From: an uncultured Parabacteroides sp.
Lineage (GTDB): Bacteria > Bacteroidota > Bacteroidia > Bacteroidales > Tannerellaceae
NCBI GenBank assembly: GCA_934718155.1
Contig: CAKUZF010000008.1
Location: forward strand, 4,761-68,760
Direction: 5' to 3'
DNA: 64,000 nucleotides
Numbering within the stretch: position 1 is the first letter of the stretch; every line of letters starts with the position of its first letter. This document shows positions 1 to 9,000 of the stretch, in pieces. A program made the position numbers.

Positions 1-3000
1 GATATTGCGCCCAGCTATAAAAATAGAACCAGATATAACTGGATAATAACCGAGCATGAGTTTGATTAGTGTGGTTTTACCACTACCAGATGCTCCTACT
101 ATAGCAGTTACTTTCCCTTTCGGTATATCAAATGATACACCATCAAGTGTCTTTTTCAAAGCATGGGGATCGTATTTGAAATCTATGTTTTCTATTTTAA
201 TTGATTTTTCAGAGTCAAATGTTTTTGCTTGGTTTTCTTTAGACTCTTCGTTTTTACCTTCATGAATTTCGTTGATTCTTTCAAGGGAAATCTTCACATC
301 TTGTAAAGAATAGATGAATGACATAGTCTGTTCTACCGGAGAGTTGAGCTGCCCCACAATATACTGGATGGCAAGCATTGCACCAAGTGTAATCTGACCA
401 TTTATCACTGCAGTCGCAGCAAGAACTGTAATCATTATATTCTTGACCTCATTAATGAATATAGAGCCGGCTTCCTGTGTCTGTTGCAATTTAAGCGATT
501 TCATTTGGACACCGAATAAATCAGCTTGAGCATCTTCCCATTCCCACCGCCTGCGTTGTTCACAGTCCTGTAACTTTATCTCCTGTATTGACGTGATGAA
601 TTGGTATGTCTTGTTTTGGTTAATTGCCTGCTGTTCAAACAGCTCATAATCGAGCACTTTGCGACGTCGCAGGAATGAAGAAATCCATAATCCGTAAACC
701 ACGCTTCCCATAATAAAAACACCGAATATTATCTTATTGTAAATAAACAGGACTAAACCGAATATAATGAAACTTAGAAATGTAAAAACTACATTTAGAA
801 CCTGTCCCGTAAGGAAATTTTGCACGCGCGAATGATCTTCAATACGTTGTAATAAGTCGCCCATGAGTTTTGTGTCAAAAAATGCCATCGGTAACTTTAG
901 CAACTTGATAAAGAAATCACTTACCAAAGAAATATTTATTCGCATGGAGATATGAAGTAGCAACCACCGGCGTATAAAATCTGTTGCAGTTCGTCCAGTG
1001 ACAATCATCAGCTCTCCCAATAGGACAAGCCAAATAAATTTTATGTCATTATGCTTTATCCCAATGTCAACGATTGCCTGGGTTAAAAAAGGCATAATAA
1101 GCTGAAGCAAACACCCCAGTAACAGACCTAAAATTATTTGAATAAAATATTTTCTATATTGTAATATATAGCCTAACAAAAAGTTAAATGAACGTTTATT
1201 GACTTGTTCATCCAATGTATTTGCTTTCAAAAAAGTTTCAGTAGGTTCAAGAAACATTACTATACCTTTTTCTTCTACATTTGAAACAGTGCTAATCCAA
1301 TGTTTCTTGAATTCTTCGAATGAATAGCATAATAATCCTTTACCTGGATCTGCGACATAAAACTTTTTTTGTTCTTTTATTTTATACAAAACAACAAAAT
1401 GATTCTGATTCCAATGAAGAATACAAGGTAATAATTCACTATTGAAATGATTTATTGAGATTTTTATTGAAGTAGCATTAAACCCCAGTTTAGTAGCTGT
1501 CTTGATTAAACTGAATAATGAGACACCTTCACTTGTGGGAACACATAGATTTGATAGATTATATTGATCAATATTATGTCCATAATGTCTACAAATCATT
1601 TGTAAACATGCTACACCACAAGACATACTGTCACGTTGTCTGCAAAATTTAAATCCCATAATCCTTTACAATTTACAATCGTTGTTTTTCATTACTTGAA
1701 GACCCTCCTTTATATTTACTTTTTGTTGCGTTGAAATTATACTGTACAGTCAATTGCACATAACGAGAATCACTGTATTTATCATATTTAAATACTATAT
1801 GGCTATGATCAATGCACCATTGAGTCTTATCTGTTCTAAAGATGTCGTTTACCATTAGAGATATGGACATCTTCTTATCAAACAACGTTTTCGAAACATT
1901 GACTTTTGTTTGCAATGATGACTTAATCAGATATATTCCAGAATTACCCGCAGAGTGCCAACCGGCATTGACCGTTAAAAACCATTGATGTGGGAATGTT
2001 AATGAGTTGTTTAACCGAATATTGAAAATCGGTTTATCATATGACTTGCCTGATAAAATCAAATCTTGCCATTGTCCACCCCATTCAATGCTTGGCCGCC
2101 AAATGCCTATGGTCGGAGTGTAGCTTAATGCAAAGAATCGGCTCTTTACATCATTCATATTGTCGGGTTTTACCAGAACAACAGAACTCTCATTATACAA
2201 TTCAACCATTTGAGTGATATAATCTTCATAAATCGTATAGCCCAAAATAGCCTTAATATCTTTGTAGCCCAAAATGCAGGTAAAATCATTTTGTATTTGT
2301 GGCAAAAGCATGGGGTTGCCACTTTCGTACACATAAGGGGAACTATATTGTATATTACTTCTTAACGAGCTATAATTTGGATATTTAATTTTTCGTTCGT
2401 AACTTAATGTCGCTTGTAAATCTCCTTTTGAGTAATTCGCAAATAGATTAGGGAATAACTTATGATATTTCTTTGATTGTTCTTTATTCCATTCCTTATT
2501 CTTATAATAATCGAAATCGATATTCTCATAGCGCATTCCAGCCCCAATCCCCCAATTGCCGAATTGGAATTTAGAAGAAGCAAACAATGCCCAACGATTC
2601 TGTTTGGTTACATCGTTAGAATTATTGATGCCAAGTGTGTTGTTATCAATCTCATAAGTCTGTGTCATGTCTGTGTAAGAATACTCACCTCCTCCTTCTA
2701 TGTTCACATACTTGTTAGTGTAAGTCAGAATTCCCTTTGAAGCATAATAATTGTACCAACGGTTGTTGACTGTGTTGACATCTTCAGATGTATTATCGGT
2801 AAACCATGAATACATATTATCTTTTTCATTCCCTTTCACCCAGTCAAAATTGAAATCCAAAGAAAGATTATTACCTAAGTTACCGGTAAAATACGAATTT
2901 ATATTGTGTGTATGGTCAGGCTTGTTAGATAATGCCAGTTGCTGTTTCAACTCCATTTCATTATTTACAGCATGACTGATGTTGTTATACATATCGTTTT

Positions 3001-6000: not shown

Positions 6001-9000
6001 TTTCATAAAAAAATGCTTCGGCTTTTATTGATTCATTCCCCATTACTTCAGTCTTGTGCGTGTCAGAATTATAATCCACCTTTATAGGTAGACGAATAGG
6101 CAAACGATTTACTGACATGTTTTTTCCAGATATGCTTTTGCGATGAATTTCCATAAAAACACCACGTTGTTCTGCAAATGCAGAGTGTGCCATTACTAAT
6201 AATAGCCCGACTAAAATAATTACCTTTTTCATTTTCGTTATACTATTGTTTTTAATCTGTCGTAAAATTACATCTAATATAGTTTTCAACCAAGAGTAAA
6301 AGTTTCACGCGAAGCTTTATAAATAACTGACATACTGTATATTACACATAGTGTGATGCATTGAAGTTTTACAAGTCCTATTAAAGTTTTACAGAGTTAC
6401 AGGAATGGTTACTTTGCTTTATTCTTGTTCAATGTTCATTAGGTAAAACTAGAGATTATATTCCAATGTTGGTTATTAACCTACGAATATAAAGACCTAT
6501 ATTGGTATCATGCTCACCAATTCCAAGTTTCTGCCGAATTTCATGGCTTATGATGTAATGGCGTTTTATTTGGATATATTCTCCGACCTCTTTGCCACGC
6601 AATCCTATTGCATACAAGCATATGTAATTGATTTCATCAATGGATAACCCATGCTGTTCAAGATGTTCTATAAACTTTGGATGTGACGCCGTGAAAGCAA
6701 GACGGGTTGAGTCCATAAACTTTTTTTTATCATTATGGATAGTCTCAATCAATTTATTATAAGATTCTGCATAGCTCTCGTTATTAGTTATTTCCTTTGC
6801 TAATAAACCATTTAACATATCAAGCCTATCCTTTATTACAGATTGGATAGGTTTAGCCAGTTCTGACTGTTCCTGATATAGATTTTTCAGATTGTCACGT
6901 TCACCTTCTAACTGAGAGAGTTCCAATTTGAGATTGTTTGTTTCCAATTCATGTTGTCGCTGCTCTGCTTCAAGTCTCAGCTTGTCTTTTGCCAAATTTT
7001 CGGTTTCTAGGATTTTCTTGTCTCGTTCAAACTCAGCCTTTTCTTTTTCTTTCCGTAAGTTATCTTGTTCAAGTTTCAAATTCTCATTTTCCTTTTCTGT
7101 AAGAAGACGTTTAGTTTTACTAAGGTAACCTTGATAATATAACCATCCTGCAAGCATGACCAATACAAAGACACTGCATAGTGTCCCTCCAATTATCCTG
7201 TCTTTTTTATGAATCTCTAAGAGATTTTTGAGTTCAATTTTATGCTTCTTTTCAGAGAATAAAAGATCTTGTGAAAGCAGTTCTTTTTGATAACGTTCCA
7301 AGATACAAGAGTATTTTCGGTATGAAGTGAAGGCTTGTTCATATTTTCCCTGTTTTTCTAGAATGTCGATCTTTATAGAAGCATATTTGAGCGAATCCCA
7401 AGTAGATTCAAGTGTGGTTATTTCCGAGAGGAGGGATAGTGCTTTATCATATTCTGCCATCTTTGAATACCCTTGTGCAAAAAGGATGGCCTCATCAGTT
7501 GTTAGCTCCATGCTTTGATATCTTGACAAGACGTCCTTTATTTCTTTGGACGAACAGAATTCGATTGTATAAGATAGCAGAGAAGGGAACAGATATGTAT
7601 CACCATCAGGATTCTTTTGAGTCAGACGTAAACAAACGGAAAGGAGGCTGTCCGCTGCTATTCTGTTATCCTGCATGACATAACCATCAAGTGCATTTGT
7701 ATAGCTCTTAATCTCAAGGATATCTCTACCTATACCACTATATAATTTTGCGGCCTCGATGTTGTTATGTATAAACTCGTTTATCTTATACTGTTTCATA
7801 TACAAAACACCCTGCGCCACAAATGCATGAGCCAGTAATAATGAGTCAGTTACTTCTCGTTTCAAATCGCAGGCGTTCATAAAAGCATGCATGGCGGAAT
7901 CATCATCACCTTGATTCTGATAAATCCGACCCTGATAATAATATGTCCGAAGCTGCTCATTAGGGGAACCATTCTTAATATAATAATCAATAGCTGGTTG
8001 AAGGACATCAAATGTTGTGGTATCAATGCAGTTCTTGTCAAGAGCCATAGATTTAAGCAGTGCATACCTGGCAGAGGTCTCTTTCCCTTTGATGTTCGAT
8101 TTAGAAATTTCATCCAATATGGCAAGAGCTGAATCGGGTTGAGTATTCATTAAGTTTTCAGCTATATCCATTTGCCTCAAAGTCGATGAATATCTGTTAC
8201 AGGCAAACAATACCACAACGATTATGAATATAATGATAGAGTTTTGAAGTTTATGCATAATGTGACACCTTTACTTGACAATCATATTATTTATCACCAT
8301 AAAACATTGTTCATTAAAAAACAATGTTTTCCGCCACAAAGTTAGCATATATTTCTAAATTCTGACATTATTTCATAGAAAATTCAACTTTATGATTCAT
8401 ATTGTAAGATTACCTATAGATAACGCATATAAAGTGAAGTAGGATTGCACATGGTTCTCCCAAATAGCCACCAGTACCAATAGTGTTGTAAAAATGCAGG
8501 GTAAAGTGGGAAAATCCTGTTTTGTTATATGGCAAGCGTGGAGATGAGCCGAACGAGGAAGAACTCCGGAAAGCAGGATGAGCTAAGCGCCATAAAAAAA
8601 AAGTCCACCAAAGGAGCTAACCCCTTTGATGGACACTCATGTTGTTATCTTCTTATCTGATTATTTGTTGAAACGCTCTTTCAGCTTAGCCAGCATGTCG
8701 CAAGTCATCGCGTCTAAGTCGTACTCGGGTTTCCAACCCCACTCCTCGCGAGCGCAAGTGTCATCGAGCGAGTTTGGCCATGAATCGGCAATCGCCTGGC
8801 GCAACGGATCCACCTCGTACTCCATCTCGAACTCAGGCATATACTTCTTGATGTTGTGATAGATGATCTCCGGGTCGAAGCTCATAGAGGCGATGTTGAA
8901 CGAGTTGCGATGAACGAACTTCGTGGAGTCGGCCTCCATGATCTCGATCGCCGCACGCAGACCGTCGGGCATATACATCATATCCATGAAAGTGCCCGCA

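Follow-up and report, generated by a model that had tools for sequence, protein, structure and literature searches.

Thioether-forming peptide systems such as CteB/SCIFF, PapB/freyrasin and the sactipeptides combine a radical S-adenosylmethionine (rSAM) maturase, in which a CX3CX2C motif is joined to a SPASM Cys cluster and an N-terminal extension, with short Cys-rich precursors, leader-dependent processing and a C39 exporter; in thuricin CD two peptides with three Cys each are produced. Gut Bacteroidales are dominant human symbionts, and to our knowledge no rSAM-modified peptide has been characterised from them. We have analysed a 64,000-nucleotide stretch of DNA from an uncultured Parabacteroides sp. 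(contig CAKUZF010000008.1; hereafter the window), whose left end is occupied by a low-GC island encoding a ribosomally synthesised and post-translationally modified peptide (RiPP) system with the same parts. Contigs used for comparison carry L numbers, the source contig being L001. The seven island genes all lie on the minus strand and follow one another, in the direction of transcription, as a membrane tetratricopeptide repeat (TPR) protein (REG), a secreted protein (p119), precursors A and B, an rSAM/SPASM maturase, a TonB-dependent transporter (TBDT) and a C39-ABC exporter. The original prediction, which had listed these genes on one strand and described them as a functionally coherent RiPP-type operon, is thus borne out by two precursors, a maturase nearest to thioether-forming enzymes and a C39 ABC exporter. 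The locus differs from the described thioether systems in its Gram-negative Bacteroidales host, its distinct C-x-C-[DN]-C-Φ-Φ-[SG]-N-x-N core, its single maturase for two peptides and the addition of a TBDT, a TPR protein and a DUF3244-like protein, and the PapB, SCIFF, CcpM and RumMC models fall far under their cutoffs. Our best explanation, held with evenly divided confidence, is that the island represents a mobile seven-gene Bacteroidales RiPP operon of the thioether type with a separable REG/TBDT receptor or sensor module.

The GG-Bacteroidales system of Haft and Basu (TIGR04148/04149/04150) likewise occurs in Bacteroidales and pairs an rSAM maturase with GG-type leaders, and a link to it had been raised as a possibility when the locus was first noted. 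This link is not upheld. The maturase scores 53.2 bits against TIGR04148, over residues 89-279 only, compared with a cutoff of 300, neither precursor matches TIGR04149 (GG_sam_targ_CFB) or any other NCBIfam model at E<=0.01, and the pseudo-rSAM partner (TIGR04150) is found neither in the seven-gene operon here nor in the related Phocaeicola loci L012-L017. The window operon is therefore not a member of that system. In a BAGEL4 survey of Bacteroidales (Fernandez-Cantos et al. 2023, PMC10352776), rSAM 'areas of interest' were numerous and nine clusters were curated. One of these, BGC2 of Phocaeicola vulgatus, resembles the island in its parts list (rSAM, peptidase-containing ABC transporter (PCAT), membrane-fusion protein (MFP), outer-membrane protein (OMP) and TPR protein) and in pairing GG-motif precursors with a PCAT, whereas its precursor cores (…KCGLGCYTGG…, …AIKCCNNKGK…) are unrelated (PMC10352776). 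The core motifs of the Cys-triad family described here do not occur in the precursor tables or supplement of that survey, which had already raised the puzzle of a PCAT and OMP without an MFP; the OMP fold, orphan modules and carriage on integrative and conjugative elements (ICEs) lay outside its analysis. We found no experimental work on this precursor/maturase family in the literature, and an occurrence count for a 2025 review of Bacteroidales antagonism gave no instance of the term 'radical SAM'.

The assignment of the maturase rests on conserved motifs and profile comparisons. Its CX3CX2C motif, C107-N-F-N-C111-P-Y-C114, is invariant in the family alignment, as are most of the Cys in its SPASM region (C332/C333/C336, C351, C383, C391-x2-C394-x5-C400-x3-C404 and C421/C423); the Pfam SPASM model itself gave no match on the protein. 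The best solved relative of the family profile is CteB (5WGG; E 7e-27), aligned through residue 404, and the profile aligns from residue 4 to the N-terminus of 8VPO. The N-terminal extension of ~95 residues may be a RiPP recognition element. Among the NCBIfam models the highest scorers were TIGR04463 (rSAM_vs_C_rich; 211 bits, cutoff 525), TIGR04334 (Clo7bot; 191 bits, cutoff 600) and NF038107 (CefB, Cys-every-fifth; 180 bits, cutoff 600), all of which act on Cys-rich peptides and all of which scored about one third of their equivalog cutoffs; lower scores were obtained for PapB (112 bits, cutoff 340), CcpM (110, cutoff 500), SCIFF (82, cutoff 425) and the anaerobic sulfatase-maturing enzyme (anSME) model (82, cutoff 349). 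Cys and Asn are likewise interspersed in the Clo7bot precursors (GYCxxCxxNCxNxC; L086, L080), but these have no GG leader and are encoded by 7-10 tandem genes in clostridia. Six diverse relatives of the maturase likewise remained under all named equivalog cutoffs, suggesting that the whole rSAM family lies outside the named equivalogs. Judged by these scores, the operon family falls outside the GG-Bacteroidales family and every named NCBIfam maturase family. Homologues are abundant in Bacteroidales metagenomes, with copies of at least 90% amino acid identity in P. vulgatus and P. coprocola, and a contig scan of species-representative genomes found none with >72% identity. We consider it fairly probable that the three Cys of each peptide are cross-linked by this enzyme through thioether chemistry.

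Both precursors carry a GG leader and a Cys triad as originally proposed, the two triads being CTDCNC and CTCDC, each behind a ...KGG leader. Peptides near-identical to precursor B occur in P. vulgatus (WP_234209244.1) and in metagenomes, and orthologues of both the A and B types are present in L012, L018 and L026. A profile built from A and B retrieved 36 clusters (E<=1e-3) among 1.84 billion representatives, and nearly all of them show the same arrangement of leader-KGG, ~10 residues, the core motif given above and a hydrophilic Pro/Thr/Lys tail. In related loci the maturase gene is always preceded by one or two small open reading frames (ORFs) that encode a GG leader followed by a Cys-rich core, the more distant ones having cores of the type CICKCGTNS, CKCKCALSNC or three tandem DCTCGSxNxN repeats. 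The last arrangement, in which three units follow one GG leader in a single precursor, was observed in Hallella multisaccharivorax (L028 9656-9940) and Porphyromonas levii (L029 1566-1817) and is a multi-core version of the family motif.

Two candidate RNA elements flank the precursor genes. The stem-loop between precursor B and the maturase gene has counterparts in L012, L018, L026 and L019, where a strong hairpin (z -4.1 to -7.7) occupies the same position with another sequence; position is thus kept in five loci while sequence is not. It is probably an attenuator or a transcript-stabilising hairpin, and a hairpin after the precursors is the usual layout for structural genes of modified peptides. 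The short motif upstream of precursor A scores 35.8 bits against RF02914, with a gathering score of 35.6, both in the window and in L012 (9494-9526), and sub-threshold matches to the DUF805/DUF805b clan occur at the equivalent position in L018 (9263-9325), L022 (13-78) and L026 (9508-9540). The stems vary among loci (GAAC/GUUU, AGC/GCU, CAGC/GCUG) and are followed by the conserved AGAGTAGGC; similar sequences lie upstream of the precursors in L019, L033 and L034. RNAalifold on the raw MAFFT alignment of this motif gave no consensus structure, probably as a result of poor alignment. The motif may be a leader or regulatory element of the peptide genes.

The exporter is truncated by the left edge of the window, and its full 729-aa ORF is found on the source contig (L001 12327-14516). 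The peptide system, previously called complete, is thus complete on the source contig but not within the window. Pfam identified Peptidase_C39 (118 bits, cutoff 22), ABC_membrane (89 bits) and ABC_tran in this protein, the C39 motifs QRDSMSCGVACL and HFVVL are present, and the best NCBIfam matches are bacteriocin cleavage/export transporters, all under their equivalog cutoffs. As a C39-ABC fusion adjoining double-glycine precursors the protein is a PCAT, predicted to cleave both of them.

The gene between the maturase and the PCAT had been described simply as encoding an outer-membrane protein. That description stands, but the protein is a TBDT with a plug and a TonB-box-like motif, belongs to a family in which nearly all known members import, and hence offers no obvious export channel. 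Pfam matches comprise CarbopepD_reg_2, OMP_b-brl_3 (186 bits) and TonB_dep_Rec_b-barrel, the Pfam Plug HMM giving no match. A profile comparison with SusC aligned the N-terminal extension through the TonB-box region (E 1e-14), placing NEVVVVA (residues 101-107), in a flexible linker before the plug, opposite the DEVVVV TonB-box region of SusC. An AlphaFold2 (AF2) model built with 35 homologues (pLDDT 86.8) comprises a beta-sandwich at residues 19-95, the linker, a mixed alpha/beta plug-like domain at 112-207 and a barrel of ~22 long strands at 214-739. The top Foldseek matches of this model are all full-length TBDTs (Cir, PhuR, ChuA, PfeA, FepA, FecA and OprC; E 7e-21 to 1e-16 over 670-780 columns), with a probability of 1.00 for Cir, PhuR, PfeA, FepA and FecA, and the best is Cir in complex with microcin V. 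Single-sequence PDB searches with the OMP, p119 and REG gave nothing useful, profiles being required for the OMP and p119. A plugged TBDT tied to a secreted ribosomal product is familiar from MbnT (re-uptake), Cir/FepA (microcin receptors) and Oar/PopC (export); unlike these, the TBDT here lies inside the producer operon beside a PCAT and also survives as an orphan together with the TPR protein.

This survival became apparent from comparison of strains. Among contigs encoding an identical Kbl protein, 19 conspecific contigs could be accounted for, of which two contain the full operon, three REG-TBDT-PCAT, 12 REG-TBDT only and two neither. The cassette of precursors and maturase is therefore accessory, being present in 2 of 19 contigs, in agreement with the accessory character originally proposed. 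BLAST comparison placed the cassette breakpoints at 3929|6212-6216 in L002, L005-L007 and L009-L011, and every one of the 15 cassette-less contigs shows the same junction. There the TBDT signal peptide is fused in frame behind the six initial codons of p119 (MKKVII-L[ML]LIPVFSWAQS), and this chimeric structure indicates that the cassette-less form derives from a full operon of the type found in this host. Deletion of PCAT begins exactly at the PCAT start codon. In seven cassette-less copies TBDT and REG are both intact, with synonymous to nonsynonymous substitutions of 20:16 in TBDT and 20:15 in REG (pN/pS 0.20, p = 3e-6 versus neutrality); the corresponding ratio in the neighbouring tdh-like gene is 0.02. 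The window REG is identical to REG of the cassette-less contig L005.

A second orphan pair, consisting of a 602-aa REG and a 758-aa TBDT that is 89% identical to that of the window, was detected in 23 contigs from several cohorts (L098-L107; e.g. L098 3941-8277). These contigs lack p119, the precursors, the maturase and PCAT, and the pair is found in a low-GC Bacteroidales context with BACON/LRR, aspartyl-protease-like, DUF5017 and SusC neighbours. Its junction differs from that of the first orphan, the promoter region upstream of p119 being joined to the native TBDT start (MKKYLVCIL...). Relative to full-operon copies, dN/dS is 0.11 for TBDT and 0.08-0.11 for REG, with a TBDT dS of 0.37-0.5. 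Judged from their junctions and contexts, the two REG-TBDT orphan modules were independently derived, and their intact and constrained state argues that REG and TBDT constitute a functional unit for which the cell need not also carry the peptide-making and peptide-exporting genes. The retention of REG and TBDT without the biosynthetic genes is not predicted by a simple complete bacteriocin locus as first envisaged. A 66-aa metagenomic peptide (P0487) in which the precursor B leader (…NIKGGI) is fused to the last ~40 residues of the maturase (GKCAWYNERN…EHYK) is another in-frame operon deletion, so that decay of the genes for making the peptide seems to be recurrent.

REG, described initially as a membrane regulator, is a putative sensor/regulator on the basis of its sequence motifs. 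Cys20 of its N-terminal lipobox is invariant in the alignment, Pfam gave weak TPR matches and the NCBIfam BT3442 family model scored 70 bits (cutoff 940). The conserved C-terminal motif, GLSxDEINYxCLYAxGLxGKEIGxYI...IRxKLG, is LuxR/GerE-like, and hhalign placed the C-terminus against GerE in the expected register at E 0.57; a single-sequence AF2 model of this region reached pLDDT 61 and gave no fold match under E 3. Between this host and Phocaeicola (L012 6806-8548) REG shows ~70% amino acid identity and dS > 1.3, compared with 89-91% and dS of 0.4-0.5 for the rest of the operon, which suggests regulator swapping or fast sensor evolution. The TAnnTTTG promoter pattern is not enriched overall (37 matches versus 29 expected) and does not occur upstream of p119.

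A profile of seven p119 orthologues matches PDB 3SD2, a 'DUF3244 family' entry, at E 0.006, and p119 has no Pfam match at E<=10. In L012, L018, L026, L033, L036 and L051 a p119 orthologue separates the regulator gene from the precursor genes. In B. thetaiotaomicron the pair BT_3442 (TPR) and BT_3441 (Ig-fold, 3D33-like) heads a MACPF cluster (PMC2954219). REG and p119 share with this pair weak sequence matches and the same two-gene order heading an operon of secreted and outer-membrane proteins (PMC2954219), but REG lies far under the 940 cutoff, and the cargo there consists of MACPF protein and porins whereas here it is an rSAM peptide system. These similarities hint that the REG/p119 pair is a reusable regulatory module. 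Coordinates of all elements are collected in Table 1.

Table 1. Features of the low-GC island, in window coordinates.
Feature	Position	Strand	Description
PCAT, C39 peptidase-ABC exporter	1..1659	-	N-terminal 553 of 729 aa; gene runs past the left edge of the window
TBDT, 758 aa from ATG at 3949	1673..3949	-	Signal peptide, CarboxypepD_reg-like extension, plug, beta-barrel
2.3-kb cassette	3930..6211	.	Runs from codon ~7 of p119 through both precursor genes and the rSAM gene into TBDT (~6 initial codons); absent from most conspecific contigs
rSAM/SPASM peptide maturase, 443 aa	3969..5300	-	Pfam Radical_SAM and Fer4_12; ~95-aa N-terminal extension
11-bp stem-loop between precursor B and rSAM genes	5321..5345	-	Fold of 5296-5368: -19.9 kcal/mol, z = -3.9
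Precursor B, 63-64 aa	5365..5559	-	Leader ...EEEAVNIKGG, core INSQSVAIASSCTDCNCWFSNENKKETTDKQPTHVNNMTD
Precursor A, 62 aa	5570..5758	-	Leader ...IEEALDVKGG, core LNPTFGLVATECTCDCIISNKNEEKNNLVIVTKSANPFH
Short leader motif directly upstream of precursor A	5780..5812	-	4-bp stem, GCCGAAA-type loop, then AGAGTAGGC; matches Rfam DUF805b
p119, 119-aa secreted protein	5873..6232	-	Signal peptide MKKVIILVGLLLVMAHSAFA; DUF3244-like beta-sandwich
REG, 600-aa membrane TPR protein	6456..8258	-	Lipobox, TPR repeats, one transmembrane segment (~345-368), coiled coil, C-terminal helix-turn-helix-like pattern
Candidate Bacteroides-type -7 box TAACTTTG	8337..8344	-	~80 nt upstream of REG; sole minus-strand TAnnTTTG in island intergenic regions; weak candidate
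Right edge of island and strain-variable region	8560..8580, break at 8574		L004/L008 match the window only from 8574 rightwards; GC climbs here

The island is set off sharply from its surroundings. GC content is 34.0% for positions 1-8573 and 54.0% for 8574-64000, and in 1-kb windows it ranges from 0.294 to 0.379 within the island and from 0.469 to 0.600 (sd 0.029) beyond. The contrast noted originally is thus real, although the figures given for it, about 30% and 57%, are replaced by values nearer 34% and 54%. Similarly, the boundary does lie just beyond the terminator of the tdh-like gene, ~25-35 nt past its hairpin and T-run, but comparison with conspecific contigs lacking the island maps the break to 8574 rather than to about 8525. 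Three independent assemblies, L001 and L003 among them, contain the same island-core junction, and the island is therefore not an assembly artefact. The neighbouring gene itself is present as stated; its product is an Epimerase-family short-chain dehydrogenase/reductase without an equivalog match of its own, the gene is oriented divergently from a genuine kbl (TIGR01822, 710 bits), and the name tdh is consequently contextual only.

Homology and position both point to horizontal acquisition. In Phocaeicola contigs L012-L017 the same seven genes directly follow CTnDOT-type TraJ, TraM, DUF4138 (TraN-like), TraO, primase, TraQ and lysozyme genes, and this operon is 87.6% identical to the island in nucleotide sequence over 6.9 kb (p119 to PCAT), with REG at 71%. 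Nucleotide homology begins at REG and stops ~50 nt after PCAT. Even within the Phocaeicola ICE the GC content of the operon is 0.29-0.37, that of the tra genes being ~0.50. Megablast of the island against plasmid and phage collections gave no match. The order rSAM, TBDT, PCAT is kept down to 33-48% maturase identity, in Prevotellaceae, Parabacteroides distasonis, Proteiniphilum, Azobacteroides, B. fluxus, Barnesiella, Muribaculaceae and Labilibaculum, and among the related loci a REG-like gene lies upstream in nine and a p119-like gene in six. In Barnesiella sp. (L031 11243-15983) two tandem paralogous TBDT genes stand between the maturase and PCAT, and the precursor is far richer in Cys.

Within the species the variable interval extends from the 3' end of a tRNA-Ser(CGA) gene to 8574, spanning 12.5 kb here and 3.3 kb in operon-less strains. 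The tRNA gene is located at L001 17892-17979 (-) and L004 5441-5528 (+), and core homology between variants stops exactly at its 3' end. Leftward extension on the source contig thus recovered the rest of the transporter and the tRNA gene, but not an integrase or matching direct repeats: the interval between tRNA-Ser and tdh on L001 contains no integrase and no tra gene, tra genes adjoining the operon only in the Phocaeicola loci, and searches of the island ends for direct or inverted repeats gave only short, chance-level matches, the tRNA-Ser end not being repeated at the right boundary in the full-operon variant. At the opposite junction of the operon-less variant D (L004 ~8775-8797), the sequence GGAAAGGATGCCGG...CTTTCC is a near-copy of the tRNA acceptor and 5' end and may be an old attachment-site scar. 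Other cargo of the interval (L001 15739-17575; L004 5002-8575) includes a HigB/HigA pair, an Abi_2 fragment and an insertion-sequence transposase remnant, as well as a 197-207-aa secreted Asp-rich protein with a long poly-Asp/Trp tail; variant D has HxlR-type and SnoaL-like genes in place of the peptide operon, and block order differs among strains. The deviant GC content, the variability among strains, the location between tRNA-Ser and tdh and the near-identical operon on a CTnDOT-like ICE all support the horizontal, accessory origin originally put forward, and we regard it as very probable indeed that the island is an acquired accessory RiPP operon.

GlnS of the host shares 91% identity with its Parabacteroides distasonis counterpart, and by this measure the host appears to be a Parabacteroides-related bacterium with unusually high GC content. 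Elsewhere in the window a cobalamin riboswitch (85.5 bits) was detected at 21981-22184 (+), upstream of a 682-aa ORF at 22355-24403, and a Bacteroidetes FopS-family small RNA at 54955-55028 (-), scoring 76.4 bits against a gathering score of 56.

As we envisage the system, the maturase would bind the leaders and form sacti- or ranthipeptide-type thioethers between the thiols of the Cys triad and residues downstream of it, for which the invariant Asn pair of the core is a candidate acceptor. PCAT would cleave after GG and pump the ~4-kDa peptides from the cytoplasm, the TonB-energised TBDT would bind or take up the mature peptide at the cell surface, and the periplasmic TPR domain of REG would sense it and switch on the operon promoter. 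REG and TBDT would thereby form a separable 'receiver' module and the remaining genes the 'sender'; the operon would travel as cargo of CTnDOT-type ICEs, and most strains of this host would have deleted the sender genes and kept the receiver. TBDTs import in nearly all studied cases (PMC6434023), and the orphan modules are kept where there is nothing to export; for these reasons we lean, hesitantly and with a little under even confidence, towards the TBDT being a receptor or importer rather than an exporter. Only tentatively do we entertain the possibility that the peptide serves as a signal or a shared good and not as a toxin. The wider picture, a communication or shared-good circuit new to the Bacteroidota in which a minority of strains would be senders, most strains and the species with orphan REG and TBDT would be listeners responding to or exploiting a peptide that they have ceased to make, the TBDT would deliver the peptide to the TPR domain of REG, and sender genes would spread on ICEs, is in our estimate rather unlikely.

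Several points weigh against this interpretation. The type of cross-link, and even its occurrence, are read from sequence; the DNA-binding domain of REG lacks statistical support, its role is deduced and its topology predicted. Pfam scans found in the TBDT no STN signalling domain of the kind typical of transducing TBDTs. The signal of purifying selection in the cassette-less copies could be partly inherited by recombination with full-operon strains, and small ORFs are under-called in databases, leaving the size of the precursor family uncertain. Neither this locus nor the related rSAM-TBDT-PCAT operons contain a membrane-fusion or TolC-type gene, so that, if the TBDT is the receiver, the passage of the peptide across the outer membrane is left unexplained. 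The same gap favours the reading of the locus as a classical two-peptide thioether bacteriocin, close to the view originally put forward, in which peptides A and B would be antibacterial, PCAT would carry them into the periplasm, the TBDT would be an Oar-like, TonB-energised secretion channel in place of MFP and TolC, REG would provide autoinduction, p119 or TBDT would confer immunity, and strains with REG and TBDT only would be decaying relics or keepers of immunity. This reading fits the presence of a PCAT, the conserved adjacency of TBDT and PCAT and the pairing of paralogous precursors, which resemble the thuricin CD peptides in carrying three Cys apiece, and a pair resembling REG and p119 heads the BT_3442/BT_3441 MACPF cluster of B. 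thetaiotaomicron, MACPF proteins including Bacteroides toxins. Export through a TBDT is a live alternative, as Oar, a TBDT with the same N-terminal CarboxypepD_reg extension, is required for export of the PopC protein in Myxococcus (PMC6434023), and it would also explain the missing MFP and TolC of Bacteroidales RiPP clusters, in which PCAT and OMP without an MFP recur (PMC10352776). However, an exporter has no role once the precursors, the maturase and PCAT are gone, yet the TBDT remains intact and constrained in two independent orphans; the operon contains no recognisable immunity gene, a single maturase serves both peptides, and the one precedent for TBDT export concerns a protein rather than a peptide. 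We judge the bacteriocin alternative somewhat doubtful.

A metallophore function, in which the Cys-triad peptides, secreted by PCAT, would bind Cu or Zn and be re-imported with the metal by the TBDT in the manner of methanobactin and MbnT, with orphan strains as pirates, appears improbable. A TBDT inside a RiPP operon and orphan receptors in non-producers do resemble siderophore or chalkophore piracy, the TBDT model matches the copper transporter OprC, among other structures and without specificity for it, and a tight CxCxC could in principle chelate metals. The nearest enzymes, however, use up Cys thiols in forming thioethers and would thereby destroy the thiol ligands, which makes this role unlikely; in addition, genes for a metal-responsive regulator, a reductase or a periplasmic binding/ABC importer are lacking from the operon, and the conserved Asn-x-Asn and hydrophobic pair would be left without explanation. 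Far less likely still is a reading without any peptide system, in which the small ORFs would be spurious and the maturase would act in anaerobic sulfatase maturation or on a cofactor; assignment of the enzyme to a family such as anSME, with no precursor matches, had been named at the outset as fatal to the peptide reading. The SPASM fold is common to anSME, and the anSME model TIGR03942 does give a weak match of 82 bits, but this compares with a cutoff of 349 and with scores of 180-211 for peptide-maturase models. The small ORFs keep their GG leader and invariant Cys motif across the 36 clusters and many loci, they are accompanied by position-conserved hairpins and a C39 exporter, and no sulfatase gene is present nearby. 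On HMM scores and precursor conservation this candidate was rejected.

Returning to the thioether operon with its separable REG/TBDT module, the locus provides a precursor/maturase family that is widespread, well defined and recognisable by a clear motif, and that is carried on conjugative elements common to Phocaeicola and a Parabacteroides-like species. It bears on the role of the recurrent PCAT and OMP architecture without MFP in Bacteroidales RiPP clusters. The independent existence of the TBDT and its regulator is the most interesting and most testable aspect of the system: the maintenance of REG and TBDT alone in most strains raises the question of whether Bacteroidales use modified peptides as signals or shared goods.

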